A stretch of DNA of 64,000 nt from Balanoglossus misakiensis. Its lineage: Eukaryota > Animalia > Hemichordata. Location: assembly GCA_040954595.2 (NCBI GenBank), contig CM082582.2, positions 4,696,303-4,760,302 on the forward strand, written 5' to 3'. The notes under the pieces were generated by a model, which was given only the letters and a program-made list of their open reading frames with translations, made no database searches and had not been told where the DNA came from. Each line of letters opens with the position of its first letter. The first letter of the stretch is position 1. Below are positions 6,745 through 48,890 of the stretch, piece by piece. The translations under genes and the position numbers were made by a program.

Positions 6745-6746
6745 AA

Positions 6747-6764
6747 TGGTGACCCCGACGTGAT
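6747..6764 (+). other. tRNA-Trp primer-binding site (18 nt)
   Basis: TGGTGACCCCGACGTGAT is the reverse complement of the 3' 18 nt of mature eukaryotic tRNA-Trp including CCA; it follows ...TTCACA plus AA. Confidence 0.85.
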
Positions 6765-8045: not shown

Positions 8046-8084
8046 GGTGTATTATTTGCTGACCCTATATTGGCAAGCTTCACA
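8043..8084 (+). repeat. 42-bp direct repeat, copy 2; supplies the leader and ATG of the p25-like ORF
   Basis: Minus strand reads tgtgaagcttgccaatatagggtcagcaaataatacaccATG. Confidence 0.95.
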
Positions 8085-14800: not shown

Positions 14801-15166
14801 AAGAAAGTCGAACACCCCGTGTGCAATAATGAAGAGGAATATGTGATGACAAAATTGTTGAATTTTACCAACTGTCCAGATTGTAAAGTTATCACTGTAG
14901 ATCGAGCTAATCGCGACTACAACTACACCGACATGTTCGGAACTGATGCGATAATCCGGAAGCATAATTTGGTTTTATTCAATGTATGCAAACAAAGTTC
15001 GCGTGTGTATTTCATATCCAATTGTAAGGATGTCCAGTGTGTAGGCGTATACAAATTTGCCACCTTGGTGAATCAATTGAAAATACTAACTGCACTTAAA
15101 AACAAGGAAGCAATGGTAAACAAAGTGTCAACTGTTTTGACTGAACGTCTCACGAAATCACAATGA
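11882..15166 (+). CDS. polB: Family B DNA polymerase, delta-like, with divergent catalytic and exonuclease motifs (alternative ATG 11963)
   Basis: Motif A RDFKSMYGSIIVAFNIDITT, motif B QMARKQLIVGAYG, motif C LFGNADSLM, VKGF, C-terminal Cys cluster CPDC...CKDVQC; AATAAA 15258-15263. Confidence 0.88.
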   Translation: MPTCLCPSSYLYCNFITGQSLITLNLVMNVGRRRVYLLKLEVKGRGVNASDLCTIFGKLPNGRSIALDILDPVYRIYLNPINEVRDEEEVCALIHQYTSTFSNNFSVGKTSKVIGNGYAGDSRLPFWYVESSENAVVKQVQKNLPRSIFNFFMDGCGKAYLDVAANMNIGGVGWHWIKSSRYVTGCKCHSWYGKEHDHATVSDTHSIEPQREGESSPPPPINILQLKVHCYPDGVIAFITCSLLRWAKDLTCLFNNTFRNCTVVKFRTTMYGGDISNVVNCRDEGNVLRAFTKIITTCDYDFLCGYFLEKEQLRVLKERSCLHGLNLINPLLIRDIRHTPFINRWDNDPRGIGLIDICTDKHADGPDAYKYIKDTVFNKGFLNTYLSTCEAATIFCSRLTHKKSNVDIIQVPYMDFFESAMTRKAKQLGYVFACREIGGSNATTSHSEYEIEADRGQGCQGGLFLTPVQGLHVGNAELRDFKSMYGSIIVAFNIDITTSLQESRAGLLNDVIEIPGGYNFVSPNVRQGLLPSIVSNLVAQREHFQKIAQSNNENGSWYEMQQMARKQLIVGAYGVNLRQSIFTSPCVAKAITSTGRFLFERMRVTAASFTHPHLLTTPSVLFGNADSLMTSFLPARELSNVEWTEVFMDIGQCFHDDIRKVVQTMGANIDARLLRFESKGHAKIVMCTSRKQQYVMCIRSTSKKGCCLVVKGFVSNSTNCHPLVRNVERCMLSLLFEGHVLLRSVESGQLSTLHPSELSTRSQLIYEAYVASSGVWVKVGDAINQDTGVKNSFRLRDNLGRELCERLFDEDGIPILTTDRLREIRSEVETVVLYTLNRVIMLQEDTHLLIKHLPPNANPGARSTLEKQYMQFHGRLPCDILYVNTKEDGPMHPLLAVFQQKTLETDDTIASIKKTFIEGGDEGGPYSIMNVMRPNVKTLHGVLCMETESTVQNQLRVQRQFRKRFDSVLAMSSKKVEHPVCNNEEEYVMTKLLNFTNCPDCKVITVDRANRDYNYTDMFGTDAIIRKHNLVLFNVCKQSSRVYFISNCKDVQCVGVYKFATLVNQLKILTALKNKEAMVNKVSTVLTERLTKSQ

Positions 15167-18600: not shown

Positions 18601-21600
18601 GTTTCTGTTGGGTCTCCTCATGTTTATCGTGTCTTGTTGACAGACTGGTGTTTTGCTCAGAAACAAGTCGTTCAAATTCTCTTGTCCGTTCCAACAGTTG
18701 TCCGTTGGTCTCAATCAATTTCCTTCTGTCTTCATTCAGATCCACGATATCGCGCTCGAGGTTTCGAATCAAATTAAAACTTTCATCATTGGAGCGTTCT
18801 ATATCATCTTGCAATTTCTGTTTTATCGCCTCAATGTTGTCTAATGACTTTCTCATACTTTCAAGCTCGCGCTGTTTCGCTCTGTTTTCTTCTTGAGTAC
18901 GTACAATGCGTTTGGTCAACTCGCCATTTTCGTTTTCTGCAATTTCTAATTTTTGTTTGGCCATTTCCATAGCATATAGTGACTGTTTAATAGAGTCAAG
19001 CTCGCGCTGTTTCGCTCTGTTTTCTTCTTGGGTACTTACATTGCGTTTGGTCAACTCGCCATTTTCGTTTTCCGCAATTTCTAATTTTTGTTTGGCAATT
19101 TCCATAGCATATAGTGACTGTTTCATAGAGTCAACTTCTCGCTGTTTCGCCTCAACTAACGAATTTTGTTCTGTTTGTATACGTTCGATGTCCCGACTCA
19201 ACGTGTCTTTTTCGTTCTCTACAACCACCAGTTCCCTTTTTGCCGCCTCTACAGTTTCTAGTGACTGTTTCGCACTTTCGACCGCTCGCTGTTTCGCCAA
19301 AACTAAAGTTTTGTTTTCTGCTTGGATACGTCCAATCTCTTCCACCAATTTGGCTGCCTCATTCTCTGCACATACTAATTTCCCTTTCATATCCTGCATG
19401 TTACGCTTATCCGCTGTGATTAGTGCCTCGTTGTCCGCTTTAAGATGCTCAATGTCATTTTCTAAATTTTCTATACGCGCCAACAATGATTTTATTTTTT
19501 GTTTGGCGTCAGTTTGACTCGTTTGTTCAGTTTGACCGTCGTTGACCCCCTCCGATACACGAAGAGTTCTGCAATTTTCTTCAGATAGTTCCCCATTTAC
19601 AGAAAGCCTACTGCCACTCTCTCGAGGTCGCGGCAATCTTATTGGTTCATAATAATCAGTAAGAGATTTCAAGTCATCCTCCAGTGTATCAGTTTCAGTA
19701 CCGGATACAAGGGGTATGTCAAATATAGGATCCTCACCAACACTGGCGTTGCTGTTCGACGTATAGTGTATCAGTGACGGGGACATTGTTTGTGGTTTTG
19801 GAGTATGTAAGGTGTCGGGTGTATCGAATGGAATCTCAACAAGCGAAGGCCGGGACTGTTTAGGCGACGCATGTCTTGGAGGATGTAAGGTGTCGGGTGT
19901 ATCGACTGGAATCTCAACAAGCGAAGGCCGGGACTGTTTAGGCGACGCATGTCTTGGAGGATGTAAGGTGTCGGGTGTATCGACTGGCCTCTGAACAAGC
20001 GAAGACCGGGACTGTTTAGGCGACGAGTACAAGTCGTCGAGGCCACTCGACGTATCTTGAGGACAGACTGTCTGTAACAGTGAAGTAATGGTATCATCGA
20101 AAGGCGCGGTAGTTGAGGGCGCCGTTCGTGGTTTAGGGACAGGTAATGCCACCAGCGAGTCTGATGCAGGAGACGAAGTAGGCAACGATGATAGGTCTCT
20201 ATGCTTAGTAACCTTCGAATCTTCTCGCGAGTCCAATGGAAGAGTGGTGCGTGTTTCTTCGGGGATGGTAATCTGCAAGGGTGTGGACGCTGATACCGGT
20301 GGGAATACGACGCCGTCAGTTGTGGAGGTGTCGACAAGAGAGGAAAACTGCTCCCAATTGTCAATTTTCTCAAGGGGATGGTCGCCAGGGGTTTGCGCAT
20401 TAGACGAAGATGTCGATTTGCGTGAGAGTGCGTCAGAACCATTTCCGTCCACTCGTGTTGGAACATTTTGTACTAATTCACTAACGTCTTCGCTGTGGAT
20501 CAATTCCTGTAAACCGGAATATCCGCCACTGTCTGCTTGATTTACATCTGATATAGCGGACGCCGTGTCTGAAGTATGTGTCATTTGTTCATCAGTGTCA
20601 ACTACACGTATCGGGTCACTTGACTGGTCGTCGTATTGTTCTGTCAGTTCTGATAGGGATGCCTGGCAAATTTCCCCGGCTGGTTCAACATTTACAATGT
20701 TTTCAGGATGATACTCATATTCGTCTCTGTATCTGTCCAAAGTATTGTCAGTCACTCTGTCGTCGAACCCTCGAGGTGAAGGGTCCGTTTCAAGCACATT
20801 CTCGTATTGACTATTTGAAAAGTCAACGTATCTTTGGTCATTGTCTGACAGAATGCCCGCATTGGCGCGTCCTGTCTTATATCTTCTATCCTCCGTAAAC
20901 CTCGTGTCGCACAAAGCACCATATACAATGGCGACAAGATTACCCTCAGTGTGTCCACATTTTAGAGTCCCCTGTATATTATTACCAAAGAGTGTTGGTA
21001 AGTCATCTGTAGCATTATCTGCCAATAATTCTCTTAGGGCAGTTTGTTCTAAAGTACCACTTAAGACGTTATGTACATCTTTTTCGATTCGTATGAAACG
21101 TGCAAGACTCCTAAATAATTGATTAAAATTTATGTCCATGGACGTTTCTTTGTACTGAGCAAAAGTTGAATTAAGTGCCCGTGCAGCAGAATGCATGGCT
21201 ACTCTCAATTGTTCAAACAATGGAATATTTATTGAGTCTGGTGTACCGAAACACTCTGGAAAGGTCGATAGGAAGTGCGGCTTTGTCTGGTGATCGTCGA
21301 ATAAACCATTTATCAGGTCGAGCAGCTCGTTTCTATTCGTATGACTGTCGCTGGCAAGGTCCAAGATCGTTTCACAATTGGCGCACAAGTGACTCCACAG
21401 ATATGGATATAAAGACAACACGCCCCAGACATTTGGAATTTCAGATAAGATTAATTGGAGTGTATGTTTTGACAGAATTATGTAAAACGTTGGCATTTGA
21501 CTTTTGACATCCTGTTCGATATATTTAAAAAAATGATACATCGTACCCCTCTCATATTTCAAAAGCACACTGCACACATTCTCCAACCTATCCAAATCAA

Positions 21601-22414
21601 CCTTTTCTATGCCTTCCACTACAAAGCTGTCCTCATTTTTAGCTAAATACCGATGTGCACCATAAGCGGTGTACGTGAAATTTTCGGATTTTACTCTGTG
21701 TGTGTGTTTGCTGGGGTTAGCGTCTGTTGATTTGGAATGGTAAGATGTGGTTCCTGGAAAACTCCGCATACAAGAGAAACATACGGCCTTGCGCGTCAAC
21801 ACGCGACATATGGCATTTTTTTTTAAGTCGTACGCCACATACAAATTTTTTGTAGAGTCTTTTTGCAACAAGAAGCCACCTCCTAGGACCAACATGTAGA
21901 CGAGCCTATTGAACGTGGATGGTGGCAGGCTGCACGTCGACTTTGACCTGACATCTTTGTATATTGTTAACAGACTTTTGTACAATCTAAGCAGTTCGAC
22001 GCAACATGGCGTGTCGCCTATTTTACTCTCACGAACGGAGCACAATGTCTCGACGAATGCGTCGGTAAATCCACGTGCTAGAAATCTATTTTGGTCCGCA
22101 GCATGGACTATGAAACCATCGTCAAACCCCGTTGAGATTATTCTATTTAACCTACACACGGGATTGGTGCTTGAAACCAGTTCGTCTTCTATCCTGTTAG
22201 TGGGTGTACACACCCTCTTGCCTATCTGGAGGTGACTTTGCCCATCTTCATCGTCTGAATGTGAACATTCACTCTCATTGGGCCGTTTTCGAGAAATCTC
22301 ATCTGGACATTCCATTAAAGGTTCAAATGTTATTGCCCAAATACAAAACATAATTGCCCAAATACAAAACATTAGTATTAAGGTTTTATTATTATCAAAT
22401 CTAGGTGACCACAT
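15674..22414 (-). CDS. Giant coiled-coil viral protein (likely ATG at 22315), tegument/structural-like
   Basis: 2246-aa uninterrupted ORF: globular N-terminus, S/T/P-rich linker, roughly 1100-aa heptad region, globular C-terminus. Confidence 0.8.
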   Translation of the reverse strand: MWSPRFDNNKTLILMFCIWAIMFCIWAITFEPLMECPDEISRKRPNESECSHSDDEDGQSHLQIGKRVCTPTNRIEDELVSSTNPVCRLNRIISTGFDDGFIVHAADQNRFLARGFTDAFVETLCSVRESKIGDTPCCVELLRLYKSLLTIYKDVRSKSTCSLPPSTFNRLVYMLVLGGGFLLQKDSTKNLYVAYDLKKNAICRVLTRKAVCFSCMRSFPGTTSYHSKSTDANPSKHTHRVKSENFTYTAYGAHRYLAKNEDSFVVEGIEKVDLDRLENVCSVLLKYERGTMYHFFKYIEQDVKSQMPTFYIILSKHTLQLILSEIPNVWGVLSLYPYLWSHLCANCETILDLASDSHTNRNELLDLINGLFDDHQTKPHFLSTFPECFGTPDSINIPLFEQLRVAMHSAARALNSTFAQYKETSMDINFNQLFRSLARFIRIEKDVHNVLSGTLEQTALRELLADNATDDLPTLFGNNIQGTLKCGHTEGNLVAIVYGALCDTRFTEDRRYKTGRANAGILSDNDQRYVDFSNSQYENVLETDPSPRGFDDRVTDNTLDRYRDEYEYHPENIVNVEPAGEICQASLSELTEQYDDQSSDPIRVVDTDEQMTHTSDTASAISDVNQADSGGYSGLQELIHSEDVSELVQNVPTRVDGNGSDALSRKSTSSSNAQTPGDHPLEKIDNWEQFSSLVDTSTTDGVVFPPVSASTPLQITIPEETRTTLPLDSREDSKVTKHRDLSSLPTSSPASDSLVALPVPKPRTAPSTTAPFDDTITSLLQTVCPQDTSSGLDDLYSSPKQSRSSLVQRPVDTPDTLHPPRHASPKQSRPSLVEIPVDTPDTLHPPRHASPKQSRPSLVEIPFDTPDTLHTPKPQTMSPSLIHYTSNSNASVGEDPIFDIPLVSGTETDTLEDDLKSLTDYYEPIRLPRPRESGSRLSVNGELSEENCRTLRVSEGVNDGQTEQTSQTDAKQKIKSLLARIENLENDIEHLKADNEALITADKRNMQDMKGKLVCAENEAAKLVEEIGRIQAENKTLVLAKQRAVESAKQSLETVEAAKRELVVVENEKDTLSRDIERIQTEQNSLVEAKQREVDSMKQSLYAMEIAKQKLEIAENENGELTKRNVSTQEENRAKQRELDSIKQSLYAMEMAKQKLEIAENENGELTKRIVRTQEENRAKQRELESMRKSLDNIEAIKQKLQDDIERSNDESFNLIRNLERDIVDLNEDRRKLIETNGQLLERTREFERLVSEQNTSLSTRHDKHEETQQKLSDALKEIDALKDQLATATSKMNTIDSDLTDTSQHVKRVSSENAFTKELLHKEQAANEQLNHQIRRLETKLSALVSEKNQLQGDLNAQKVQHDTTRSNLKQDNERLQTELTDTRSVVDSLEHKLEIRENLLEERQSDIRKFETELEDVRLSLQHANETNSKQKEAEEKLQAQVTRLNIDCSKLRTEVFVSNKNAQAKIYQLSVENEQLQSNGRGKQSGSIDGETNRYMGEAKRLKAELHEKVMEYNQMRAEISKRTEQENAIREENDYLNKKIERFVHEKAVSEQNNQRQREKLQELNSQSLSDNKSLREFKEKESKTRREIDTLEMKVRQSVDTRNALKQQLDEANAEVDDLREEIETLKSDNQDMKAKAESTADITYKQIAQLRIERDMYQRDRDQLEDKVVVANEHVDALSKQHRQTETNNRQLRMDLESLRRQFDDTNSRFRNLRQENIQISRELGDKNTEITSTVKSNELQQKENAGLVSENEALRNKLLEQVELVARNNEDKIMQQREFEQKLNEIQLRLDDAIGDLNDWKRKANDLNDENSEFRTKLHSLETSFIQAEQRDSLNTRAFRDESRIGQGQDSDLSDSQSQAGSPEYYIARDRRMQEIASDKRLLENKVKVMEKSHTSQIAELRRHFENEIREQQKIIETRDKSLRELENAKGILGVRAIDSQASRIDPSGSQTSNIEQTVCLEVSSEHDLESLVNSLRKENKAIRQLSAERAAEIDRLKKAHDGCDKHEATVRDLSRQLRESQDIVRYLQTQRDALKEAHRLRSNGVTIDAPCRDNYVDLAINGRPFVSFVSSAYRRLPSYTDSLFKNIMTDFFDPQPSFSVMLEEARQFMCYRDDNGHRDSELNKFSRVAAMCRGHATTKVATFYPVVIPHDPNTSTPTMFRLILLLGKTRNVKFVDRHDAMIPLCFVSTNEHLIDFTKGSAKYIVVTKSKRNLTTLVPYVKSMLSHNFDQNLNQITVK
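18861..19160. repeat. 135-bp (45-aa) coding tandem repeat in the giant protein
   Basis: tcaa(g)ctcgcgctgtttcgc recurs at 18861, 18996 and 19131. Confidence 0.85.
19805..20025. repeat. 78-bp (26-aa) coding tandem repeat, about 3 copies
   Basis: atgtaaggtgtcgggtgtatcga at 19805, 19883, 19961; encodes SPKQSRPSLVEIPVDTPDTLHPPRHA. Confidence 0.9.
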
Positions 22415-26629: not shown

Positions 26630-27140
26630 AGACAGACAGTGTATATTTTGTACTTGACGTTTATTTATCACCTTTTGTTACATTAAAAAATAACATAATT
26701 GTATCGGCAGTATTAACGTCGTCTTGTTTTTTATTGTATGCGGGGGGGGGGGGGGGGTGGTACAACCAAACCACACAGTTTAAAATCCATATCAATTGTA
26801 AGACAACCAGTGTAAATTTTGTACGCTACATTCATTGATCAATATTTGTTGAACAACAAAAAATAACATAATTGTATTGTCTGTCTTATAGTCGCTTTGT
26901 TTTCTATTGTATGTGAAGGGGGGGGGGTACAACCAGACCACACAGTTTAAAATCCATATCAAGTGTAAGACAACCAGTGTAAATTTTGTACGCTACATTC
27001 ATTGATCAATATTTGTTGCATTAAAAAAAGATAACATAATTGTATTGGCTGTCTTAACGTCGTTTTTTTCTGTATTTTACGCGAAGGGGGGGGGGGGAGG
27101 CACAGCCAAACTCTATAGTTAAAACTCAATATCAGTAGTA
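26630..27140. repeat. About 170-bp tandem repeat (roughly 3 units) with poly-G tracts, overlapping the RNR2 3' end
   Basis: taacataattgta at 26691, 26864 and 27032, each followed by a G-run. Confidence 0.85.
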
Positions 27141-28138
27141 AACTTATGATCTTCTTTGTTTCCAGAGCCAAACTTTCGATATTCGCTGACTCTTCTTTCG
27201 AAAAAGTTTGTTTTTCCATCAAGAGCGATGTTTTCCATAAAGGGAAAGGGATTGTCTACTTTATACAGTTTATCCACGCCCAATTCTCCAAGTAATCTGT
27301 CCGCCACAAATTCCACGTATTGTTTCATTTTGTTGGCATTCATCCCGAGCAAGGGTTCTGGAAGGCTTTCGTCGACAAATACCTTCTCGATCTCAGTACC
27401 TTCTTTTACAATGTCAATAACTGTGTCCTCGGGGGGTTTGTCTCGAAGAGGTAATTTATGGTACATGAGACAAGCAAAATCGCAATGTAATCCCTCGTCA
27501 CGACTGATTAACTCATTAGAATGACACAGACCGGGTAGAAACCCCTTTTGCTTTAACCAAAATATACCGGCGAAAGCCGAAGAAAATAGAACCCCTTCGA
27601 CCACGGCAAACGCCACCAGTCTAGTAGCGAAAGTAGACGCCTCGTCTTCAATCCACTTTGAGATCCATTTTGCCTTTAGATTAATACTCGGTACGGTTAA
27701 TACAGCATTAAAGAGTCTTTGTTGCTCTTGGCTGTTCTCGGCGTAAGTCTCTATTAAGAGTTTGTACATCTCCGAATGAATGTTTTCCATTGCTGTTTGA
27801 AAGTCGTAGAAATATTGGGCTTCCAATATGGTCACTTCACGAGAGAATCTATTGACTAAATTCTCGGAGACTATCATATCGCTACTCGCAAAAAAGGCTA
27901 AGATCATTTTCACGTACATTTGCTGTGTCTCTGTCATGAGTTTCCACGTCATCAAATCTTTACTAGTATCTACTTCACCTGGGACCCAGTAGGAAGACTT
28001 AGCCTTCTCATACATGTCCCACAGGTCATGGTGTTCAATATCTCTGACACAAAACCGACGGAGGTCTATGGTTTTATTCGTTCCCTTAGATACAGCTATT
28101 TTTGACTGTACCTCACGGAGGATATTTGTCGCGTCCAT
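27119..28138 (-). CDS. RRM2: Ribonucleotide reductase small subunit (class Ia R2), intronless
   Basis: ILAFFASSD, ENIHSEMY, VEGVLFSSAF, SRDEGLH, KTNFFERRVSEY, C-terminus FTTDIEF. Confidence 0.97.
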   Translation of the reverse strand: MDATNILREVQSKIAVSKGTNKTIDLRRFCVRDIEHHDLWDMYEKAKSSYWVPGEVDTSKDLMTWKLMTETQQMYVKMILAFFASSDMIVSENLVNRFSREVTILEAQYFYDFQTAMENIHSEMYKLLIETYAENSQEQQRLFNAVLTVPSINLKAKWISKWIEDEASTFATRLVAFAVVEGVLFSSAFAGIFWLKQKGFLPGLCHSNELISRDEGLHCDFACLMYHKLPLRDKPPEDTVIDIVKEGTEIEKVFVDESLPEPLLGMNANKMKQYVEFVADRLLGELGVDKLYKVDNPFPFMENIALDGKTNFFERRVSEYRKFGSGNKEDHKFTTDIEF

Positions 28139-28371
28139 GTAATCGGTTCACAAAAAGACATATGATAAACTGGCCGTTATCTTCAATTATTTATACGTTC
28201 ATGAAAACAGAATCACAACAAACATAATTCACATGTGTTGCGTATGTATAGTAATGTCGTAAATGAAGTGACCGTTTGATATTTTCTTCAGGGACGCGGT
28301 TGAGAACCAATGTACATGGTTTGTGCCCAGACGCAATTGGTTAGTACACCACCCTTTTATTCAATCACTTA

Positions 28372-29185
28372 GGCTGCATTCACAAACACCTCTGGAGGGG
28401 GGGGGGGCGGGAGAATTCAATTTTTTTTACCGCTAATTTTCACATGCCCCCCTTCCGAACTGCCAATATTTTCAAACCCCCCCCCCTTCCGAACTGCCAA
28501 AGTTTTGAAATCCCCCCATTGTCTTTCACAGAGCAAAACACATCACCTATCTATCTTGTAAAAAGAAAAACAGCGCTCCCATGAAAAGAATTTGAAACTG
28601 ATGTTTCCCCTCATCAGTGGGTATTAAAACTGAACATTGTTTTTATTTGTTAAGTACATATATTTGTATTCTGTGTTGGGAGAATTTGTAAACCGAGAAT
28701 TGAAGGGGGTGGGTTTGGGAGGGGGTGTCCCCCTCCCACGTAAGAAAATTTTCTAAAATACAGAGCTCAAAGCTGCATTTTAAGGAACCCGGCAAAAGCA
28801 AATTAACTCAACTACCGGTTTGTTGGGGAGGACAAATTTAACCGTCGCCGAGCAAAGTTATCATGGGGTGGGGGCAAGTCCCCTGACCTGGGTCACTAGA
28901 TAAACCAGTCAATGATTGAAAGGTGTTGATGAATTGAGGGGGTGGGTGTGGCAGGAGGTTTCCCCCTCCCACATTAGAAAATTTTGTAAAATAAAGGGCG
29001 CGAAACTGCATTTTTGTGGACTCAAAATAAATATTTAGTCGTCAAAGTTTTCAAGTCCCCCCCCCCTTTCAGTCCCTAAATTATTTCAAACCCCCCCCCC
29101 TCACATACCCTCAATTTTTTCAAACCCCCCCCCTTAATTCTCCTGCCCCCCCCCCCCCCCTCCAGAGGTGTTTGTGAATGCAGTC
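28372..29185. mobile_element. Non-autonomous PIF/Harbinger-type MITE inserted in the viral region
   Basis: TIRs ggctgcattcacaaacacctctggaggg... / ...ccctccagaggtgtttgtgaatgcagtc, TTA on both sides (28369-28371, 29186-29188). Confidence 0.88.
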
Positions 29186-29412
29186 TTAGAAGGGGTTCAT
29201 TACATCAATTTGTGACAAAGAAGAGAAGATACACAGTTCACATCGTGCGTTTCATGATGTTTATTACTTTCCGTACTCGGACCTTGTAGAACCAGCAACC
29301 GGATACGACACCACCGTCGGCTCGTGGGAGTTCTACCAATTATAATATATAAGTATAAGAACAACAGATAAACGCCTTATCGATATTGAGGCTTTTACAT
29401 CCGCGGAAGACG

Positions 29413-31505: not shown

Positions 31506-32567
31506 TTAAATATACATTGACTCGTAATTCTGTTGCATGTTCAGATCTATCTTTGGTGGTCTTGCTTGTACATCTGTAGAGAATTCATAATTCAAGCAGA
31601 ACGATCCAACTTGTTTTGTAAAACAAGGTGTCTCTAACCCTCTCTTCCCTATTCCAACATAGCCCATACTCTTACACTGACTGAATATATTATCGTCGCT
31701 AGAGTAACTGAGAGCTGGATATGCGTAATTAAACGCAGGGTTGCCTCCATTCGACCTCATTCCTACCACATAATGTAATTTAGATCCCGAATATGTGATT
31801 CCGTCTGTTCCGCCACTCGACCATTTAGCATTTGGTACTGGTGTAATGTCTGTCACGCCAGAATACATACACGTAATTAAAGGAATATGCCATCCGTGAA
31901 AGACTTCTTGACCATTGAATGACTTCATGAAACCAATGGGACTGAAACAATTCGTAAACATTTCAGGTGAATCGATAAGACTCAACACAAGTTCGATTGA
32001 ATCCAGACCATAGTTTTCGTTGGCATACCTAATGTAGTCATCGTAATTAAACACCTCATTAGCTACAGTCTTCCAGTTTGACCGTTCCCTTTCATCTGAT
32101 GCCTTTTTAGTAATAATGTTTTGTAACCATTTCAATGGCATCGCCTTCTTAAATTCACCCCTTGGGCCACGAAATTGGTACTTTGGGAAACCAACCGCTG
32201 ACTGACCATAATTAAGAGTCACTTTCTCTGGGCCAGTATACAATAGCAAGAAATCGCCTCTGTTGAAAAAGTCTCCCAAGTCGTGGTTAAATGGTCTGTT
32301 AGTGCACGTGATATCGTGCGTGTATTCCCTGATTGTCTTATAATCAGGATTTACTTGATCTGCAAATAAGGGAGCTACTAATGGACCGTCGGTTTGCGTG
32401 AATACATTGTGTAAATCCCATGGGTCGTGATAACTGGGCGTGTCGAACGGGGGATATAGCGTCGGATTTGGGACTGGGTTTATTCTCGACCGTGTGACAA
32501 CATCCCTATGGACACCTTGATAAGTAGGTTTCCTGTTAGGATATGGAAATAAATCAGCCAGTTCCAT
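31506..32567 (-). CDS. Viral protein, candidate second triplex subunit
   Basis: 353-aa intact ORF; size and pattern (GDFLLLY, FSPIGFMKS, SGSKLHYVV, KQVG) reminiscent of mirusvirus triplexes; function inferred. Confidence 0.45.
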   Translation of the reverse strand: MELADLFPYPNRKPTYQGVHRDVVTRSRINPVPNPTLYPPFDTPSYHDPWDLHNVFTQTDGPLVAPLFADQVNPDYKTIREYTHDITCTNRPFNHDLGDFFNRGDFLLLYTGPEKVTLNYGQSAVGFPKYQFRGPRGEFKKAMPLKWLQNIITKKASDERERSNWKTVANEVFNYDDYIRYANENYGLDSIELVLSLIDSPEMFTNCFSPIGFMKSFNGQEVFHGWHIPLITCMYSGVTDITPVPNAKWSSGGTDGITYSGSKLHYVVGMRSNGGNPAFNYAYPALSYSSDDNIFSQCKSMGYVGIGKRGLETPCFTKQVGSFCLNYEFSTDVQARPPKIDLNMQQNYESMYI

Positions 32568-32710
32568 TTCGTGTAATAATTGTGCAATGCACCAACTTGT
32601 TTAATATGTATCTTTATGTTTGTTGCACTCGGATGTAAAAAAAAGTCCACTCATTACACTTCTTACATACTGCATTCTAACGCGCACACTGCGTGTGTTT
32701 ATGGTCACGT

Positions 32711-32965
32711 CGCATTTAATTCATCATTATATTAATTGTAGTTGACAAAAGGACTTGAATAAAAAACAAATACGCTCATGACGTATCCTTACATACCAGA
32801 CTCTAATGCATATGCTATGTTTGAGCGCGTACATGACGCATTTAATTCATCATTATATTAATTGTAGTTGTCAAAAGGAATTTAATAAAAAAAACAAATA
32901 CGCTCATGACATTTCCTTACATACCAGACTCTAACGCATATGCTATGTTTGAGCGCGTACATGAC
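32711..32965. repeat. 126-bp AT-rich tandem duplication
   Basis: cgcatttaattcatcattatattaattgtagttg at 32711 and 32837. Confidence 0.9.
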
Positions 32966-33051
32966 ATATTGAAATCCGTCTAATTCAACGCACATCGTAA
33001 CGATATCAGTTCGTATCAAGACGAATAATTGTTCTTTAGTTCCTGTCTCTT

Positions 33052-33444
33052 CTATCTAACCATTTTCATATGGATAGGTTCCACTCCCGATCGCCCTTCA
33101 TATCGAGCACATATAGCACTGTCTTGTAAGAGTCTGATCGTATACATCTCGGCTGCCATCTGAAGACTGTCAAAAGCTTGTCGAGTAAATTTGATCTCTT
33201 TTGAATGATTTCTGCGAACGATCTCTCTAACTATAGATTTGAAAACCGGTTCGTCGATGACGAATGGATGTCCTGTATAAAAATAATAACAGTGAATATT
33301 GAACGAGTATCACGGCCGCTAAAGTTATTGTGAATTAAGCGTCAGTTCATGCCGGAGTTATTGAGTGTACATACCGATGGTCGGTGAACGATTCTCTTTG
33401 ATTGAACATCTTTGCTTGTACGGTGAAAACGCTTTCCCCCGCAT
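33052..33444 (-). CDS. Divergent histone H3-like protein, spliced: join(33444-33375, 33272-33052), about 96 aa
   Basis: Manual translation FVIDEPVFKSIVREIVRRNHSKEIKFTRQAFDSLQMAAEMYTIRLLQDSAICARYEGRSGVEPIHMKMVR aligns with H3 [69 protein letters not shown]; 102-nt GTATGT...tttttataCAG intron; 5' end uncertain. Confidence 0.78.
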
Positions 33445-33598
33445 GATGATACGTCTTTTGAGAAGTCTGAACCCGAACTGTCCTTGATAGACGATACTAA
33501 GAACTATATACAAGAGTTATGTCACGTGGTAATAGACATCGATATGAATGTACTAATTTAACTGCTTCACATGACAAGCTATGCATTGTGTAGACCGA

Positions 33599-33794
33599 CA
33601 TCATGACTACTTACTCCGACCTGTGATGCCAAACTGTAGTTCCCATGTTTTATCACCGCATACTGCACGTCCTGGCGTCCTCACATCAGCATATGTGCGA
33701 CTTTACACTTTGAAATCATGACATCGTGATTACTTACTCCAACATGTGATGCCATACTATATTTCCCATGTTTTATCACCGCATACTGCACGTC
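33599..33794. repeat. 73-bp duplicated unit containing a GTAAGT donor on the minus strand (duplicated mini-exon upstream of the H3-like gene)
   Basis: Copies at about 33599-33671 and 33722-33794. Confidence 0.75.
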
Positions 33795-33923
33795 GTTCTT
33801 AGACTATTTCATGATGCCACCGATGCGACTTCACGCGCTTATATATATGTGTGTACACACACACGACCGCATACCCATCTTGTTCACATCGCCAATAACC
33901 GAGAAGTCCACTCAAGTGTTGAC

Positions 33924-34508
33924 ATGGCCGAACTATTCAGTGTTTCAATAAGGAGGCCGGTCAGTATCATTTTGTAATACCTTTTCCGTATTTTTACATC
34001 TTCGGGTGGCATAACCCCCACCTTTTATTTCTTTACTTAGGTGAGTATGTGGCATTTGAGACACGTAAATAAGGACGCGAAATGTAAAGCTATGGGAATA
34101 GCCAAGAAATTAGAGACAGCGCCCACTAGCGGCCGAAAAACAATGTCGAAAGGTGAGTATCGCGCGTTCGTCAGATATGCGTTATATTTAATGGTTTTGC
34201 GTTTCTGTGCGGTCGTTGATGACCGAGCCAATGATCCGTGTAAAATCAGCACCCATACTTCGAGATATCGGTGGTTTCTTGAACCATTGTATTTTATTCC
34301 GGTTTCAGGCACGAACATCGTTCTACACAATTCAGTACAGTGTTCACAGCCCTTACCCGAAACCTCTCACGTATTGGACGCCTTGACTAGAGTACATTGT
34401 GTGATTGAAGGCTGTTACAACCCAAGTGCCAGAATAGTCAGCACCGATAATGTACACGGTCTAATGCACGCTGTGAAGTTTATCAAAGGTAATGTGAACT
34501 ACATGTAA
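33924..34508 (+). CDS. Spliced hypothetical viral gene, join(33924-33959, 34041-34508); last viral-type gene
   Basis: MAELFSVSIRRP|GTCAGT...tttctttacttAG|VSMWHL in frame (81-nt intron); TATA at about 33840; AATAAA 34529-34534. Confidence 0.65.
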
Positions 34509-34844
34509 TGGATTTCCTATATTACGGAAATAAAGTTGTGACGTCAAAATTTAATGGTTTGAATGTGAGTCAGTGAAGATTAACAGTCATGTGATAGAAT
34601 TTTTACTTTCGGTTCATTGTGTGTGACAAAATCTTAGGTATTTATACAAGACATGCGAATATTACTTGACAGAGTTGTGGGTGGGGGGGGCAATTTGATT
34701 TTCTTTGGTCAAAAATGTATCGTTCAATGCAGCGATGTATCATTAACATCACCAGCGCTCTTAAAATTTAGGTCGCACTCAGTATTACCACAGTATGTGC
34801 AGATATCACATTTACGCATGCGTCGTTGTTGCTATTGAAGGAAC

Positions 34845-34855
34845 GGGGAATCCCC
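34845..34855. promoter_or_regulatory. NF-kappaB-like site upstream of paralogue 1
   Basis: GGGGAATCCCC, conserved at 41801-41811 upstream of paralogue 2. Confidence 0.6.
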
Positions 34856-35107
34856 TCGCATATACAGTGTAATTACCAGGAAGTCGAGGCCTTCGGTGGA
34901 ATCGCGGTACCCAACCGTTTGTGGTGTATAGCGTTCGTGACATTCATAGTCGTGCTCTCTACAGCTTGCAGAGATCAGTCCAGAACCCGGACATTGCTCC
35001 AGGGCGAGAAATCTTGCAGTTCTACATGTACAAGCGTCTCGTCTGCATGGTGGAGACCCTGTAAGTTGTTGGGTCAAGTAAGGTCAGTTGCAGGCATACG
35101 TTTCCTT

Positions 35108-35444: not shown

Positions 35445-38400
35445 ATGGACGTCGAGCGAATGGTTTGGTTGTATCGTATCAACCAAGAGTTCAACAAAGA
35501 CATACTGGAGCGTTATTTGGATAGTACCGTGATAGGAGGGTACTCTTTACATCGATACGATCCCGCAGATGACAGTGCACTTATCACGTGCAATAACAAG
35601 AGTGGTAAGTATGGTCTTGTTTGAGCAGAGTCGGGTAGACTAGTGTACAGCTCCGCGCCATGGTTACGAACCAAAAGGTCACGAACCTGTGTATACTCGC
35701 AGGGCAAAGGTCTTTCAATTGTACTAAAACACTGGACCACACCACCCGATATTTTCTATATGTTATAAATGTTTTTATACGATAGTCGTATGCAATTCTC
35801 ATGGCGTTATCCTGACTTACTTTCATTTTGATCATAAAACAGAAACTAAAAGCCGCGCTATAGGGATGCTATAATGCCGACATTCGGTCCGATTCTAGGA
35901 AATCAGTTTTGGGAAGTTTGCCTTGTTGACGCAGTCGTTCATATGTCTGTTGTTTATGTTTGTGTGTGTGTGTGTCAGTGTGTGCTTTTATGATTAGTAC
36001 CTGGCAAAATATTTTATTTTATTTCTATACAGGGAAAAGGGCATTTTGGCCCGTTGCAAAAAATATCGTCAACGCACATCCCAATTTTCATTAAAACCCA
36101 CTATATTTTACGTTGAATTTATAAATATGAAAATTGTCCATAAATAAAAGGAACCTACTTTACGTAAAATAGACGACTACAATGTTCAGTTAATCTGTGT
36201 CAAATGCACCAAAGGTCGGGTCCATCCTCCTTACTACCAGTGGGGCATCAAAACACGTATCAAGGCCGTAAAGATTATAGGTCGTCCGATATACAAAGCT
36301 TCATGGAGAAAGAACGTCATATATCAGAAATGATCCCACCATTTTCACACCTGTTTGTGGTTACATAGCTGATTTTCAGGTCCGTCAATGGATTCGAATC
36401 ACGCCCATGTCAAGAATAGCTTTACACTTCTTTTGATTGAATCTTTTACGGTGCCAGGTTAATTAAGGTTACTAAGAATAATTTTCTAATTTTCTTTTTT
36501 CCCTCACTGTGATCTGAAAGACGTCGATAAACTGATTGAAAGGCATGACCAGTTCAGAGCAGAAAAGTGCGACAAGGTAAGACTTATGTATACTTAGTGT
36601 GTCTAATGTGTGTAAAGATATTTCAAACCTTGCCCGAATTTTAACAAATTTTTCGTCTATTGAAATAATTTAGTGTTAGGCACTCTACCTATTATACATG
36701 TATATACGCCCCTTTAAAATGAGAATGTAACATAATGACCAGATCGATCAGGAAAATAATAAAAACCCAATCAGTCTGAATAAAAAAATGCATGTTAACA
36801 TTTAAACATGTCAAATCCTGAAAGTCTTGTTCTGGTAGGACCTTCATCGAACGTACTACAATATCACCATGGTCAGCGCCACCACACACAACAAATTTGG
36901 GAAGGGAAAAAGCGCAGAAATATTCATATGTTGGAGCTAAAACGTTGACTCTGCCAGTCTTTGAGAAACAATTAAAACATCCTACCATTTTGTAATTTGA
37001 TTTTTGTGAATCTAAATTGGGAATTAATAGCATTTAAACATCACCACACTTTAATTTTTTTCTAAATAATCATTATATAAACTCATCCTGTCAATTTAAA
37101 ACTAGTACATAAACGATTTTTTTCCCGCTACACTAAGTGTTGAATTTTCCGAGAAGGATGAATAAACTCGTCAGAACAAGATCGCCGTCGTTGACCGTTC
37201 ATTCGTACAGCACGGCCGGCTATAGGTATTTGTAAATCTATGATGAAATCCATCATTAACCCAAACGTTTCTTTTCCCTTTTAGACGATATGGAAGATAC
37301 GGGCGGACGTTACAGAGAAGTTTTCAGGAATAATCGAACAACTTCCACCCAAGAAAAAACAAGCTCTAAACAACACTGGTGCTGTCCGGAAACGTAAAAT
37401 GCCGGGCGTGTATGTCGAAGGCTCTCTCCGCCAAGTTCGTGACTTCGAAGACACTTTAGCGTGCTGCCACCATGAACGAGAGACAGGATACAGTCACAGC
37501 TCGGTCGATCAATCGAATTTAGTTGGGAGCAAAGTGAAGGCAAGTGCGGAGTTCGAATTATAGTCACGATAATTATATAGTGGCATGTTTCAGAGATGAT
37601 GATGGTTATGATGATTACATAATGAATAAATATTAAAGTGAAGGGGTCGTCGCGCCGCGTTTGTTTGTTTATAAACATTCCAGTTCATCCACAAAACCCT
37701 GAAATTAGATAATTCTTAGAATGAACGAAGCAGCCAACCATAGCATAGACTGGGCATGACAGCAACCTAAGATCCCAGTAGGTTGTGGTGACTGCAGTGC
37801 GGTTTGCGTTGGTATGAGAGGACAATTCTCATCAAGGGGGACACCCACGCGGCGCGACGACCCTTTAAATACTTGTTCCACTATGTAAGCAAAGTTTACA
37901 TGATCTCATTTGCACGTGGGTAATTATACAGGACGAGGCACCAGAGATGTCTTTCCTGTGCATATATGTACGTGTACTATAAATTTAATTTAATTTCGTC
38001 ATTAGGTCTTAGAAAATGTCACTGGAGAGGTGGCACCATGGGTATTCCATTTATGCCCTTCTATTCAAGACCATATGGACTCTATCGAAAAAAAGGCCCA
38101 AGTTACAATTACGAAGGCTTCAAAGATTACCGTGGTGTATGGCACAAATCTTGACCAGTTATTTGGCGCAGATGCTGCTTTAAGGTCGATTGTCTTTGCC
38201 AAGACAAAATATCCCTTAACAAAGCCCGGAAAGGTAGAACAAGAAGATAAGCCAACACATAAGAGAGGAAGGAAAGACGACCCACCATTGAAAATGTCTC
38301 ACCACCGAGCGAGTCGATCCAGCGACAGCAGCCCTCCAAAATCATCACCGAAGTACACAAAAACCAACGCCGGTGCGTCAAATCCACCAAGTGAAAGTAG

Positions 38401-40750
38401 AGGCCCACGAAAACAGGCGGCTGGAACTGTTGTATCCAACATCGACCAAACCGACATTTCAGAATGTCTTGAGAAATTGTCCTATTCAATGAAAACGCCT
38501 GAAGGGGTCAACGTCTCCATAAAATGTAGTGACATCACCAAAGAATCCGTCGTGGTTATTGTCAACTCTGCAAACTCGCATCTCCAGCACAAAGATGGAC
38601 TCGCTAAGACGATATCCGAAAAAGGAGGATATATCATACAGCGGGAATGTACTCTCCATATCAAACGACATGGTCCTCTCCGGCCCGGTAATGTTTTCTT
38701 TACACCAAGCGGAAATCTGCCCTGCAAATATGTAATACACGCCGTTGGACCCATCTGGGTGGAGGGTGAACATCTACAAGTTGTATCACAGGTCCTGTAT
38801 GAGACGATATTGCAGACACTGAACTCTGCATCCGGCAGATTTGAAGCCCGCTCTATTGCTTTGCCCGCTATTAGCACAGGTACGTGCATTTTTCTCAAAA
38901 ATCGCCATAGTTTAGTTTTGTAGTCCTTTCCTTAAAATTCAAATCATTAATTTAAATTACTAACTCGTAAAGAGGCGTCATGATAGATTATCGTAAGTTT
39001 GTATGTGATACAAGCCCTTTCTCCCTTCGTTCCTTGACAGGTTTACATGGAGTTCCCATCGATGTCTGTGCTAGGGTGTACCGTGCTGCGATTATGGAAT
39101 TCTCCGCATGTCACAAGTCGACAAAGCTGAAAGACATCCGAATCGTAATCAATGACGCAGATTCGGTCGGTACCTTTATTTTGGAGTTCGGTGCAGCCGA
39201 AGAGCGAATTCGTTCGGGTGGGCCCTCAAGTGACCTCTCACCAGCCCTGACTCCAAAGGCTGCGGGTGGTTCTGACAGAAGTTGGCGTAAGTCACGCGAC
39301 CGGCGTAGTCCCGCACCCGCTGCCGCTGCTGCTGCCGTCGTTCCGGGTCGTGGAAGCGGGAAAGTTGATTCCAAGAGTGGCTCGTCCGCTACATCAACAG
39401 GTGGCGCTTCCCCGTCCAAAGGTCGTAAACATGGCGGCTCGTTTGCATCAAATATGCCAATTACACCCGTGAGCGACACCAATCGCATCGCATCGCCCCA
39501 CGACAAAAGAGGCTCCTGTCCAATCTGCATCAGCGACCACGTAGCCGTCAAGAAGATGCGCTGCTGCCAGAATATTATCTGCAACATCTGCTTTGACCGA
39601 CATTTCCAAGGGGATGGAAAGTGTCCGTTCTGCTTGATAGTTGTTCTACTCAAACGAGGGGATCAACCAGACGGTGATATGGATCATCATTTGGAAAGAA
39701 ATCAACATCTCCCGGGTTATGAAGGGATGGGCACCATTGTCCTTTCATACTCTTTCAAAGATGGCATACAAAAGGTAAGTGGAAATATACTCATACAGTC
39801 GCTCGTGCAGGGGACTGGCGCAAGAATACACCGCCAGTCACTCGATGCAAATACTCCCGGTACACCGTGCTTCCACGATCGAGCCAAGGGGTTCTGTCAT
39901 AGTATCACATACTTGTTATGGCGTAAATGGTATATGTGGCAATGTGATAATTTTCTACTACTGGGAACAAAACTGTGACTTCAAAATTTGCATAATTGTA
40001 CATTTACAGGCAAACCACCCCAACCCTGGCAAGCCTTATGTTGGTACAAATCGAGTTGCATATTTGCCAGCTAGTAAAGAAGGCCATGACGTTCTGACAT
40101 TGCTGCGGAAAGCATTTGAACAGCGCGTTCTATTCACCATTGGAAAATCTGTTACCACTGGTCAGGATAACTGTGTGGTTTGGAATGATGTACACCATAA
40201 GACGAGCAAGACAGGGGGACCTGCGAGGTAGGAGATATTCGGTGATGTGATCATGTGTTTGGCATATTTGTTAATTGGATGAACAGATTGGTATTTTGTT
40301 TTTTTCTCGATTCGTTCTTTGATAAATTTTCTTGCATTTATTATTGTCGAGTGTTTGTCATAATGGACGGTCTATTGATTATGAAAGAATGAATGGATGA
40401 ATGAATGAATGAATGAATGAATGAATGAATGAATGAATGAATGAATGAAGGGTTGGTTGCTTGGTTGGTTGGTTGATCGATCGATGGAGAGAACGCTTCA
40501 TGTAATGTGCTTGCAATAACAATGGAAAATGGTTATCAAGAACTTCATCTCGGACAAATCCAAACTACACTTCTCTTATTTTCGAAGTTGTCAATAGACA
40601 TGGAGTGATTTCAATGAATTGGTTGTTGTGAAATGCAACTGTGAAGGTGCTGTAATTATATTTCACCCTCCAAATTTCAGGTATGGCTATCCAGACCCAA
40701 CATATTTGCACCGTGTTCGCGCAGAGTTGGCAGCAAAGGGAATTAACTGA
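35445..40750 (+). CDS. Host Macro-RING-Deltex C-terminal (DTX3L/PARP9-like) gene, paralogue 1, intact, 7 coding exons, about 788 aa
   Basis: Exons 35445-35604, 36521-36576, 37285-37539, 38006-38879, 39041-39774, 40010-40227, 40681-40750 splice in frame (2367 nt); macro DITKE..VNSAN..VIHAVGP..ALPAISTG; RING CPIC..CPFC; DTC GDQPDG, HPNPGKPY, VVWNDVHHKT, YGYPDPTYL..ELAAKGI. Confidence 0.9.
37643..37864. mobile_element. Small Kolobok-like MITE in an intron
   Basis: TIRs gggtcgtcgcgccgcgt / acgcggcgcgacgaccct; TTAA on the right, TGAA on the left. Confidence 0.6.
40387..40449. repeat. (GAAT)n microsatellite
   Basis: Direct reading. Confidence 0.95.
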
Positions 40751-45400: not shown

Positions 45401-48400
45401 GATGTTACAGAAAATTTTTCAGGTATAATCGAACAACTTCCACCCAAGAAAAAACAAGCTCTCAATAACACAGGTGCTGTCCGGAAACGGAAAATGCCCA
45501 GCGTGTATGTCGAAGGCTCACTCCTCCAAGTCCGTGACTTCGAAGACACTTTAGCGTGCTACTACTATGAACAGGAACCAATATGCAGTGACAGTTCGGT
45601 CGATCCACCGGATTTAGTTGGGAGCAAAGTGAAGGCAAGTGCGGAGTTCCAATTAGTCACGATAATTATATACATGTAGTGGCATGTTTCAGAGATGATG
45701 ATGGTAATTGGTAATGATAATTACATAAAGAATAATTTCACTCCAGAAGTGTTTTTGGTCGCGAACAAGACTTTTGGGGTCAATTTTACGAATACATATC
45801 AAAGTTTTTATGAATGACTACGAATGAAAATAATTTAAACTAAGTTCGAGTTTTTCAGAGGATCTATATTCGCAGTTTCACCACAAAAATTCATAAGGTA
45901 GCATTAAAGCTAGAGAAACCAATCGATCACTTGTTTACCCATTCCTCGTGACTATACCAACCATTTTTAAAACATCGGATCAATCAGATACTGCTAATAG
46001 CTGTTTGGTGATCGAACGGAGCCAGTAATGTGGTCAATTTTGCCAGGCCAATATGATTTTAACAGTAAATTGGACATCTTCATAAAAGTCTACAAACTTC
46101 TCGATTTCTGGAAATAGAACATTGGGTATGGTTATTACGTAATTTTTGTACATAAAGCTAACAGTTCAAATCACATGATAGCTTTCATTATATATGCATA
46201 GACATTCATATATCGGTTTCAAAATCGAACACAACAAGGAGTCGCAAGATACCACGTCTGTCAACCCGTCTCAGAAAACTATAACATTTCTTGTTTTTCC
46301 GATATCGTAAGTTGTGTCGTTTCGGTACGTGGCCAAATTTGGGTGTACAACCCAGGACAACATTCTGATTAAAATTACTACCGGTTATTCAAACACTAAA
46401 CCTTCCTATATTTTAATATCGATCAAAACTGATAATATGTGCAATATTCTAGTCAAACTGGGGTAAAATTCTTATCCACGAAAACTGAGCAGACATTCAA
46501 AAAGTAGAAGAAGCGAGATCAATAAAGACCCAGGTCGCGGGCATGAGTTGAAATATATAGATGACTGTCTGTTCATTGTGAAATCTCGCAACACTTGGTT
46601 GATTACCGTAGTAACAGGTTGCCAGCCAAGTAGTATAGAATAGGTTCAGAGTTGTAAAAATGTAACTGTTGTGCTTTTCAACACGACGTACAATTGTTTA
46701 TCCTGCTTCAGATGAGAATTTACCAAATGCATCTCATTTCGGAGGATGGCTCCGAACCTTTCCTCTATTTGTTGGAGATGGTACCAGCATAAGGTACCAA
46801 CATGCACAAAGCTATTACCAACAGTAGAATCGGGATTAATATCAGTCTTTTAAATATTACATTATGCATAGGCAAAGTTTACATGATCGCATCTCTCGTA
46901 GGTAATTACAAGACGTGGGGCCAGATGTCTTTCACGTGCATATACATACATGTACTATGAACTTCATTTCATTTCTTCATTAATTAGGTCTTACAGAATG
47001 TCTCTGGAGAGGTGGCACCATGGGTATTCCATTTATGCCCCTCGATTCGAGACCATATGGACTCTATCGAAAGAAAGGCCCAAGTTTCAATTGCGAAGGC
47101 TTCAAAGAAGTCGGTAATTACCGGGGTGTATAGCACAACTATTGAACAGCTATTTGAGGCTGACGATGCTTTAAAGCGGATTGTCTGTGCCCGGACATGC
47201 TATCCTTTAACAAAGTCTGGAAAGGTAGAACGAGACGATAAGCCAACATATAATAGAGGAAGGAAAGACGACCCACCATTCGAAATGTCCTATCACCGAC
47301 CGAGTCGATCCAACGACAGCAGCCCTCCAAAATCATCACCGAAGTACACAAAAACCAGCGCCGGTGCGTCAAATCCACCAAGTGAAAGTAGAGGCCCACG
47401 AAAACAGGCGGCTGGAACTGTTGTATCCGACATCGACCAAACCCACATTTCAGAATGTCTTGAGAAATTGTCCTACTCAATGAAAACGCCTGAAGGGGTC
47501 AACGTCTCCATAAAATGTAGTGACATCACCAAAGAATCCGTCGTGGTTATTGTCAACTCTGCAAACTCGCATCTCCAGCACCAGAATGGACTCGCTAAGA
47601 CGATATCCGAAAAAGGAGGATATATCATACAGCGGGAATGTACTCACCATATCAAACGACATGGTCCTCTCCGGCCCGGTAATGTTTTCTTTACACCAGG
47701 CGGAAATCTGCCCTGCAAATATGTGATACACGCCGTTGGACCCATCTGGGTGGAGGGTGAACATCTACAAGTTGTATCACAGGTCCTGTATGACACGATA
47801 TTGCAGGCGCTGAACTTTGCATACAACTGTTTTGAAGCCTGCTCTATTGCTTTGCCCGCTATTAGCACAGGTACGTGCATTTTTCTCAAAAATCGCCATA
47901 ATTTTGTTTTGTAGTCCTTTCTTTAAAATTCATATCATTAATTTAAAATTACTAACCCATGAAGAGACGACATGATAGATTAATGTAAGTTTGTATATAT
48001 GACACAAGCCTTTTTCTCTACGTTCCTTGACAGGTTTACATGGAGTTCCCATCGATGTCTGTGCTAGGGTGTACCGTGCTGCGATTATGGAATTCTCCAC
48101 AAGTCAAAAGTCAACAATACTGAAAGACATCCGAATCGTAATCAATGACGCAGATTCGGTCGGTACCTTTATTTTGGAGTTCGGTGCAGCCGAAGAGCGA
48201 ATTCGTTTCGGTGGGCCCTCAAGTGACCTCTCGCCAGTCCTGACTCCAAAGGCTGCGGTACGTTCTGACAGAGGTTGGCGTGAGTCACACGACCGGCGTA
48301 GCCCACCCGCTGCCGCTGCTGCGGTCGTTCCTGGTCGCGGAAGCGGGAAAGTTGATTCCAAGAGTGGAGCCTCCGCCACATCGTTTGTATCAATTATGCC

Positions 48401-48890
48401 AATTACACCGGTAAGTGACACCAAACTCATCGCATCGCCTCACGATAAAAGAGACGCATGTCCCATTTGCATCAGCGACCACGTAGCCGTCAAGAAGATG
48501 CGTTGCTGTCAGAATATTATCTGCAACATCTGCTTTGACCGACATTTCCAAGGGGATGGAAAGTGTCCGTTCTGCTTGATAGTTGTTCTACGCAAACGGG
48601 GGAATCAACCAGACGGTGATATTGATCATCGTTTGGAAAGAAATCAACATCTCCCGGGTTATGAAGGGATGGGCACCATTGTTATTTCATACTCATTCAA
48701 AGATGGCAGATTAATAGAGCTAGAATTCAGATACGGTACTTCTTTTGAGAGAATGTGCACACTGATTTTATGTTACAAGAAGTTTTCAATGGTCGTTGCA
48801 GTTTTGCCCCTTGCTATTCATTGCAGTTTGCACCTTGTGTTTCGAATAAAATATTGCATTCCCATATTAGAGAGATTTAGTTACACGTAA
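42451..48890 (+). pseudogene. Paralogue 2: Macro-RING with truncated Deltex domain (3'-truncated gene or pseudogene)
   Basis: Exons 42451-42610, 44947-45002, 45380-45634, 46988-47870, 48034 onward; homology to paralogue 1 stops at about 48708 (SYSFKDG) and the frame runs into unrelated sequence; last two DTC exons absent. Confidence 0.75.
44232..44600. repeat. Partial copy of the TAACCCAATATGTAATA satellite/foldback element
   Basis: Starts tgtatcaccccaatatgtaat, same terminus as the 49763-52606 element. Confidence 0.8.

Follow-up and report, generated by a model that had tools for sequence, protein, structure and literature searches.

A duplodnavirus-like element in animal-type DNA

The window analyzed here, a stretch of 64,000 nucleotides, holds a gene-dense, duplodnavirus-like block on its left and host-type DNA on its right, and a predicted spliced gene for an H3-like protein lies in the 2.3-kb gene-poor margin between them. 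The coding share is 77% at positions 1–32,600, 20% at 32,600–34,900 and 16% in the rest of the window, and the first dispersed host repeat is at 34,910. The main features are as follows.

1–32600: duplodnavirus-like gene-dense block, with capsid-like gene, PolB and RNR
17–1318: scaffold-like ORF
1353–2273: ORF of the 306-aa gene type
2946–6413: capsid-like ORF, 1,155 aa
9436–10014: RINGv
11882–15166, plus strand: PolB
15674–22414: coiled-coil ORF
27119–28138: RNR small subunit
31506–32567, minus strand: 353-aa orphan ORF beside the H3-like gene
34910–64000: host-type DNA, 16% coding, with dispersed and tandem repeats, Macro/Deltex genes and a piece of a LINE endonuclease

The capsid-like protein has four relatives at 36–62% and no match in PDB or PHROG. 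Its neighbors in the Atlas are SU10-type phage capsid clusters (0.91), with low recognition (1895), and two AlphaFold models reach a pLDDT of 29–30, at which a fold search on them is meaningless. Since structure prediction for the capsid is uninformative, also as to an HK97 fold with a tower domain, the element can be placed, as far as the data go, as herpes- or mirusvirus-like and no finer. PolB is divergent, with Pol delta as its best PDB matches and one relative cluster at 46%; its motif C reads GNADS (GHADS in the relative P0001), which departs from the usual GDTDS by replacement of the leading aspartate. The sole related contig found, metagenome contig L002, carries the scaffold-like, 306-aa and capsid-like genes in the same order as the element, and covers another part of it than the H3-like gene. 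On a maturation protease beside the capsid genes, a mark of Mirusviricota and Herpesvirales, the L002 homologue of ORF 17–1318 offers a weak Herpes_ORF28 match (E 0.015, below cut-off). ORFs 1353–2273 and 31506–32567 have what we take to be a triplex-like look; they do not match each other significantly, and ORF 31506–32567 failed three tests as a second triplex protein. Terminase, portal and RNA polymerase were not seen in this window.

Several insertions bear on where the element resides. A MITE with 44-nt terminal inverted repeats (93%) occupies 28,368–29,189, inside the viral block, and the host side holds a further copy of its inner part near 54.5 kb. On the minus strand, 6703–8084 encodes the C-terminal part of a CDK5 activator (p35/p25) that matches human p25 with an E value of 1.8e-62. 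This piece is flanked by 42-nt direct repeats that include its ATG (6703–6744 and 8043–8084), has a GC3 of 0.63 compared with 0.40–0.49 in the viral ORFs and looks like a host-like insert within the viral block; p35 is, to our knowledge, animal-specific. Together, the host repeats and genes, the MITE and the CDK5 activator fragment indicate that the element is likely integrated in an animal genome.

A hidden gene with a predicted intron

The H3-like gene is hidden from the ORF track, where no ATG ORF of at least 80 aa is listed. The earlier note had nevertheless proposed it as a spliced gene, and its coordinates are correct. If spliced as predicted, the gene reads from an ATG at 33444 on the minus strand through 96 codons.

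33505–33510, minus strand: TATA box TATATA, 66 nt upstream of the ATG
33476–33480, minus strand: CAGTT, initiator-like by what we take to be the consensus, 30 nt downstream of the TATA box
33444–33375, minus strand: predicted exon 1, 70 nt, 23 codons, basic
33374–33273, minus strand: predicted intron, 102 nt, GT-AG, phase 1, G|GTATGT ... ACAG|G
33272–33052, minus strand: exon 2, 221 nt, H3-type histone fold (H3 positions 60–128), ending in the stop codon TAG
32841–32886, minus strand: two ATTAAA poly(A)-type signals (at 32886 and 32846)
32662–32976: tandem duplication of 128 bp, in about 2.4 copies, that overlaps the predicted 3′ UTR

Read without splicing, the exon-2 frame offers none of the starts ATG, GTG, TTG and CTG before it enters the fold, the single near-cognate start there being one ATT; therefore, a first exon is very likely needed. 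The ATG of exon 1 has an A at −3, and the intron contains stop codons in all three frames and a T-rich tract with a branch-like TTCAC 24 nt upstream of the acceptor. The spacing of the TATA box and of the initiator-like, branch-like and poly(A) signals is normal. With a generic, unfitted splice matrix, the acceptor scores above 99.5% of the 6,430 AGs in the window and the donor above 97.4% of its 8,252 GTs. A window-wide filter for short introns returned nine candidates, this one among them. The donor at 33374 ranks fifth among the ten best of the upstream kilobase, and the only better-scoring donor with an in-frame ATG is that at 34021 (ATG at 34055, intron of about 750 nt), which makes a possible alternative first exon. 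Judged from these signals, a spliced structure is likely. A histone stem-loop has no match anywhere in the window, and a replication-type histone gene was rejected on this ground. Upstream of the promoter, at 33597–33794, lie two 75-nt direct repeats (91%, spacing 123).

Exon 2 encodes a divergent H3-type histone fold

The histone fold of exon 2 is real. The frame at 33270–33055 (minus strand) matches Pfam Histone (PF00125) with an E value of 8.1e-10 and 39.5 bits, above the cut-off of 26.4, as the alignment in the earlier note had led one to expect. A PDB search with exon 2 gave 177 matches, of which the best 60 are all H3 (best E 2.8e-5), the top ones at about 30% identity, and the ESM Atlas leads to histone clusters at 0.90–0.91 with a recognition of 2612. 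Against 21 complete reference H3s taken from viral contigs, 21–22 of 69 positions are identical. A chance match was rejected as an explanation of the fold, and the gene is, on these alignments, a real, hidden and very divergent derivative of H3.

Two further features that had been read off the sequence were borne out. Loop 1 has one residue more than that of any of the 12 reference H3s aligned, and the tail is short and non-canonical, as the 23 codons of exon 1 do not align with the H3 tail around K4, K9, K27 and K36. By itself, exon 1 finds nothing relevant in Pfam or PDB. Its last 12 residues fit the H3 αN helix weakly in an ungapped register, a fit that 7–24% of shuffles (7% of 5,000) match. 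Nor does exon 1 raise the HMM score, which shuffled versions equal in 229 of 500 cases; as shuffling does not lower the score, we do not claim αN homology.

No other histone was found among the 27 other ORFs or in 150 of 170 intergenic frames (2.3–36.1 kb), the 20 frames left out all lying to the right of about 36.0 kb, and for the ORFs and frames scanned a full viral histone set was rejected.

The buried core is conserved beyond neutral expectation

At the buried positions of H3, taken from a list in the consulted part of PMC3017104, 11 of 19 residues are identical in exon 2. Of the buried positions tested, 16 of 17 have a BLOSUM score of at least 0, compared with 30 of 52 elsewhere (Fisher p 0.004). 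When two reference H3 genes were decayed neutrally to the identity level of the query, the buried score was attained by 64 and 13 of 4,000 runs; 5 and 0 did so with a frame that was also free of stops. The substitutions are also milder overall than expected under neutrality (31 of 3,000 runs as mild), and retention of large hydrophobic residues, taken alone, is borderline (146–262 of 3,000 runs). An open frame alone arises in 9–16% of indel-free neutral runs and by itself is weak evidence of selection; conservation at the H4 contact positions defined by the complex model is not significantly above that of the rest (p 0.16–0.22). Since the buried core is conserved beyond neutral expectation, the sequence indicates that the histone fold was upheld by selection over a long time, from which present activity does not follow.

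Positions used to build nucleosomes have changed

Among 15 H3 positions taken to contact DNA, only 4 are identical. The changes include R63D, K64E, R69S, K115G and T118G, the first two amounting to a charge reversal. The total charge is nevertheless about that of H3 over the same span (K+R 18 versus 19, D+E 10 versus 10; pI 10.0). With this overall charge, the H3-like protein may still bind DNA.

At the H3-H3′ interface (positions 110, 113, 114, 123, 126 and 127), C110 is the only residue kept. The other five carry H113Y, A114E, D123H, L126M and A127V, positions 113 and 123 thus having changed together, and interface residues 130–131 lie past the stop, the protein ending at position 128. According to the parts of PMC6795475 and PMC3017104 consulted, one substitution at 113, 114, 126 or 130 is enough to block this interface and to kill yeast. 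H3-H113D of fission yeast binds CAF-1, probably in the form of an H3-H4 dimer.

The multimer check with H4 that had been proposed took the form of a model with a stand-in partner, an H4 from a viral contig (L030, residues 24–107). The complex scores 0.81, compared with 0.01 for the best of three controls; at least 95% of contacts are shared between runs and the pLDDT of the partner is at least 85. This mark is reached by 51 of 78 solved pairs and 2 of 108 mismatched pairs, and among eukaryotes by 39 of 65 and 2 of 126, respectively. As a textbook solved pair, however, H3-H4 is a case in which such a score speaks for likeness, not binding, and the model may draw on its memory of the solved structure.

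Relatives and the question of a CenH3 origin

A search of 1.84 billion representatives gave 29 proteins at E ≤ 0.001, headed by tandem H3 repeats. Matches with a single domain are divergent H3s at 30–40% identity. Of ten looked up, one bears a name ('histone H3/H4'). A word-indexed protein search with the exon-2 frame gave no candidate among proteins of 46–149 aa. Scans of viral contigs with exon 2, PolB, the capsid alignment, ORF 31506, P0005, ORF 1353 and the exon 2/P0026 alignment gave no relative, one contig (L001) being a chance match in phage-like DNA, and scans of GTDB and a phage collection were empty. The searches run found no related virus carrying an H3-like gene.

A tree was built from 27 rows: the query, 11 references and 15 of the 29 matches. 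In it the query has a branch of 1.56 and pairs with the tailless P0026 at 89/82, unstarred. P0026, from a Logan contig of 1,487 bp, is a tailless H3-like protein of 111 aa that shares R63D, L65P, Q68K and D123H with the query. It shares nine derived states in all, D123H included. P0035 shares ten and the matches were preselected for similarity, so that kinship with P0026 is not claimed; membership of the same family is possible.

The CENP-A-type features suggested by the earlier note stood in part. Of four CenH3 marks drawn from the accessible text of PMC4359364 (longer loop 1; Gln68, Phe84 and Thr118 absent), three are present (one extra residue in loop 1, Q68K and T118G) and T107 is also replaced, but F84 is kept. 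Two relatives labeled CenH3-like from their marks, with no name at the source (P0022 and P0027), share an 'AEMY' motif with the query. A clade of the query with them was not found in the tree, which holds no named CenH3, and was not rejected (AU p 0.38).

Discussion

We tentatively favor the reading that the locus is a spliced gene of the virus whose 96-residue, H3-derived product acts as an H4-binding decoy unfit for (H3-H4)2 tetramers. The gene would belong to the virus and, given its TATA box, intron and poly(A) signals, would be transcribed early by host Pol II. The protein is predicted to pair with host H4 and would likely be incapable of forming normal (H3-H4)2 tetramers; it would tie up H4 and the H3-H4 chaperones, and its dimers with H4 may enter the CAF-1/HIRA route without deposition. 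Incoming viral DNA would then be loaded with fewer nucleosomes and less silenced, or else host chromatin would be disturbed. Of the two roles considered in the earlier note, ordinary packaging of the viral genome is unsupported, because the scan of the left-hand frames showed no H4, H2A or H2B and because both the tail and the H3-H3′ surface are lost, and interference with chromatin is more likely. A wider claim, which we regard as doubtful, would be that an undescribed animal-infecting lineage, herpes- or mirus-like, carries a spliced, tailless and possibly CenH3-derived H3 as a sponge for H4 and its chaperones that makes no tetramers.

Does the gene belong to the virus, and is it intact? We consider it quite probably viral. 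It lies to the left of the first dispersed host repeat, in single-copy DNA up to that point, and its TATA box at −66 resembles those at −62, −57, −67 and −42 of neighboring viral ORFs; among the 17 ORFs that lie left of the gene, 5 have a TATAWA 17–67 nt upstream of the ATG, the background being 0.89 per kb and strand. Neither codon use nor tetranucleotides tell a viral from a host origin. If the virus instead ended near 32.6–33.0 kb, the gene could be a fast-evolving animal H3 or CenH3 paralogue beside the insertion, a reading we judge decidedly unlikely. The intron fits such a host gene, since the viral core ORFs look intronless (of the nine short-intron candidates, one falls to the left of 32.5 kb, and the ORF around it is uninterrupted), as do the gene-poor margin, with a coding share like that of the host side, the tandem duplication at 32662–32976 and the left neighbor ORF 31506–32567, which has no assigned family. 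The divergently oriented neighbor at 33768–34508 on the plus strand, which has no Pfam match, carries short-intron candidates at 33960–34040 and 34153–34308, as the host Macro/Deltex genes have introns, and a TATA-like run near 33840. However, dispersed host repeats do not begin before 34,910, the TATA spacing is that of viral ORFs, and a maintained animal gene would be odd in having no relative above 40% identity among the 1.84 billion representatives, among which animal proteins may be thin. A different possibility, which strikes us as quite improbable, is that a once-selected viral gene has become a functionless remnant through a premature stop in the integrated copy. The TAG falls at H3 residue 129, and beyond it the frame stays open for 11 codons, of which the initial four resemble the H3 end more closely than do 97% of 20,000 random frames; reading through with X at the TAG raises the HMM score from 37.4 to 40.3 (+2.9 bits). 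The nearest look-alike, P0026, extends nine residues beyond the same point, and a host MITE has entered the element. The resemblance past the TAG is a weak sign of a recent or premature stop, with a 3% chance of arising at random, and was noticed after the fact. Moreover, comparison with their relatives shows no break in the capsid-like or PolB ORF, each of which is a single frame, and the changes at 113, 114, 123 and 63–64 hold whichever end is original.

If the gene is viral and intact, its product might still build chromatin. A variant histone with a remodeled self-interface could form loose, tailless particles with host H4, H2A and H2B on viral DNA, particles that would carry no silencing marks. 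The core and its predicted pairing with H4, a net charge as in H3, the retention of C110, R72, R116 and R128 and the joint change at 113 and 123 are all in keeping with this, and very divergent marseillevirus histones are described, in the sections consulted, as still making nucleosome-like particles (PMC9145170). We think it unlikely, given the stop before I130 and R131, an αN that is weak at best, the charge reversal at 63–64, A114E and the failure to find partner histones in the frames scanned. The remaining alternative, which we hold to be highly improbable, takes the protein for a captured CenH3 (CENP-A) that serves as a centromere-directed decoy or tether, binding H4 and the CenH3 chaperone and sending viral DNA or damage to centromeres. 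Its longer loop 1, the replacement of Q68 and T118, the 'AEMY' motif common to the query, P0022 and P0027 and a clade with these two that the AU test does not reject (p 0.38) agree with such an origin. Against it, F84 is kept, most single-site marks are lost by default at 30% identity, and the tree pairs the query with P0026 (89/82), away from P0022 and P0027. CENP-A is also absent from the best 60 of the 177 PDB matches, but since this holds for P0027 too, its absence there does not discriminate.

How would the preferred reading, an H4-binding decoy, compare with known systems? That H3-like genes are reported for mirusviruses, as the earlier note states, agrees with Gaia et al. (2023; PMC10132985), the part consulted describing H3 as a core, highly expressed mirusvirus gene. 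Passages of Medvedeva et al. (2025; PMC12768974) portray mirusvirus genes as intron-rich, often with GT-AG introns of about 80 bp, and portions of PMC10827195 give the described hosts as unicellular protists, one host survey having excluded Metazoa. As here, a single H3-type gene sits in a duplodnavirus-like genome whose PolB has Pol delta as its best PDB matches; mirusviruses occur in protists, however, whereas this element lies in animal-type DNA, and no sequences labeled as mirusvirus H3 were among those compared. Six lone viral H3s, including those of Manila clam xenomavirus, DSLPV1 and sylvanvirus, share 73–87% identity with host H3, and their tails are normal or extended, according to the text consulted of Talbert et al. 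(2022; PMC9145170). Their partner histones are likewise absent and they are expected to use host histones. In contrast, our protein is about 30% identical (40% to its best single-domain match) and tailless, with a changed tetramer surface. Bracovirus CvBV-H4 is also a single histone from a virus-derived element of an animal genome that is used against chromatin, but it is an H4, about 87% identical, that enters nucleosomes and acts through an extended tail, the reverse design.

Loop 1, the replaced Q68 and T118 and the divergent N terminus recall CenH3/CENP-A, from which the protein differs in keeping F84, in its changed H3-H3′ surface and in having no support from the tree. A closer guide to a possible mode of action may be the tetramer-defective mutants H113D, H113A, A114Y and L126A, which alter the same surface and, in the portions of their description consulted, may bind CAF-1, likely as a dimer with H4; these are laboratory-made versions of canonical H3, whereas ours is a natural gene. 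Deep-branching herpes-like elements of starfish and ribbon worms (bioRxiv 10.1101/2025.04.19.649669) are also large, PolB-bearing, duplodnavirus-like regions in invertebrate genomes, and the available passages of that preprint mention no histone.

Viral histones are known in Megaviricetes, Caudoviricetes, Naldaviricetes and Pokkesviricetes, and herpesviruses are described as hijacking host histones, in the part of PMC13681535 consulted. In titles and abstracts, we found no H3 of herpesviruses or Malacoherpesviridae, no viral CENP-A mimic and no virus-encoded CenH3, and no comparable case in the literature on herpesvirus histone homologs and metazoan Mirusviricota; supplementary tables of mirusvirus papers may list similar genes. 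A lone H3 in an animal-associated relative would bridge herpesviruses, which borrow host histones, and mirusviruses, which encode H3. A core kept while tail and tetramer surface are lost would point to a different anti-chromatin strategy, one easily tested in vitro. If the wider claim holds, an animal duplodnavirus would encode a histone decoy that spans the whole fold, and a chromatin gene would connect mirusviruses with herpesviruses.

Finally, we note that the element itself, apparently an unnamed duplodnavirus-like lineage in animal-type DNA, is possibly more interesting than the histone. Beside the insertion, at 37864–39766 and 46849–48708, lies a duplicated (88%), intron-bearing gene with a Macro domain and RING/Deltex; these copies are PARP/DTX3L-like and so possibly antiviral.
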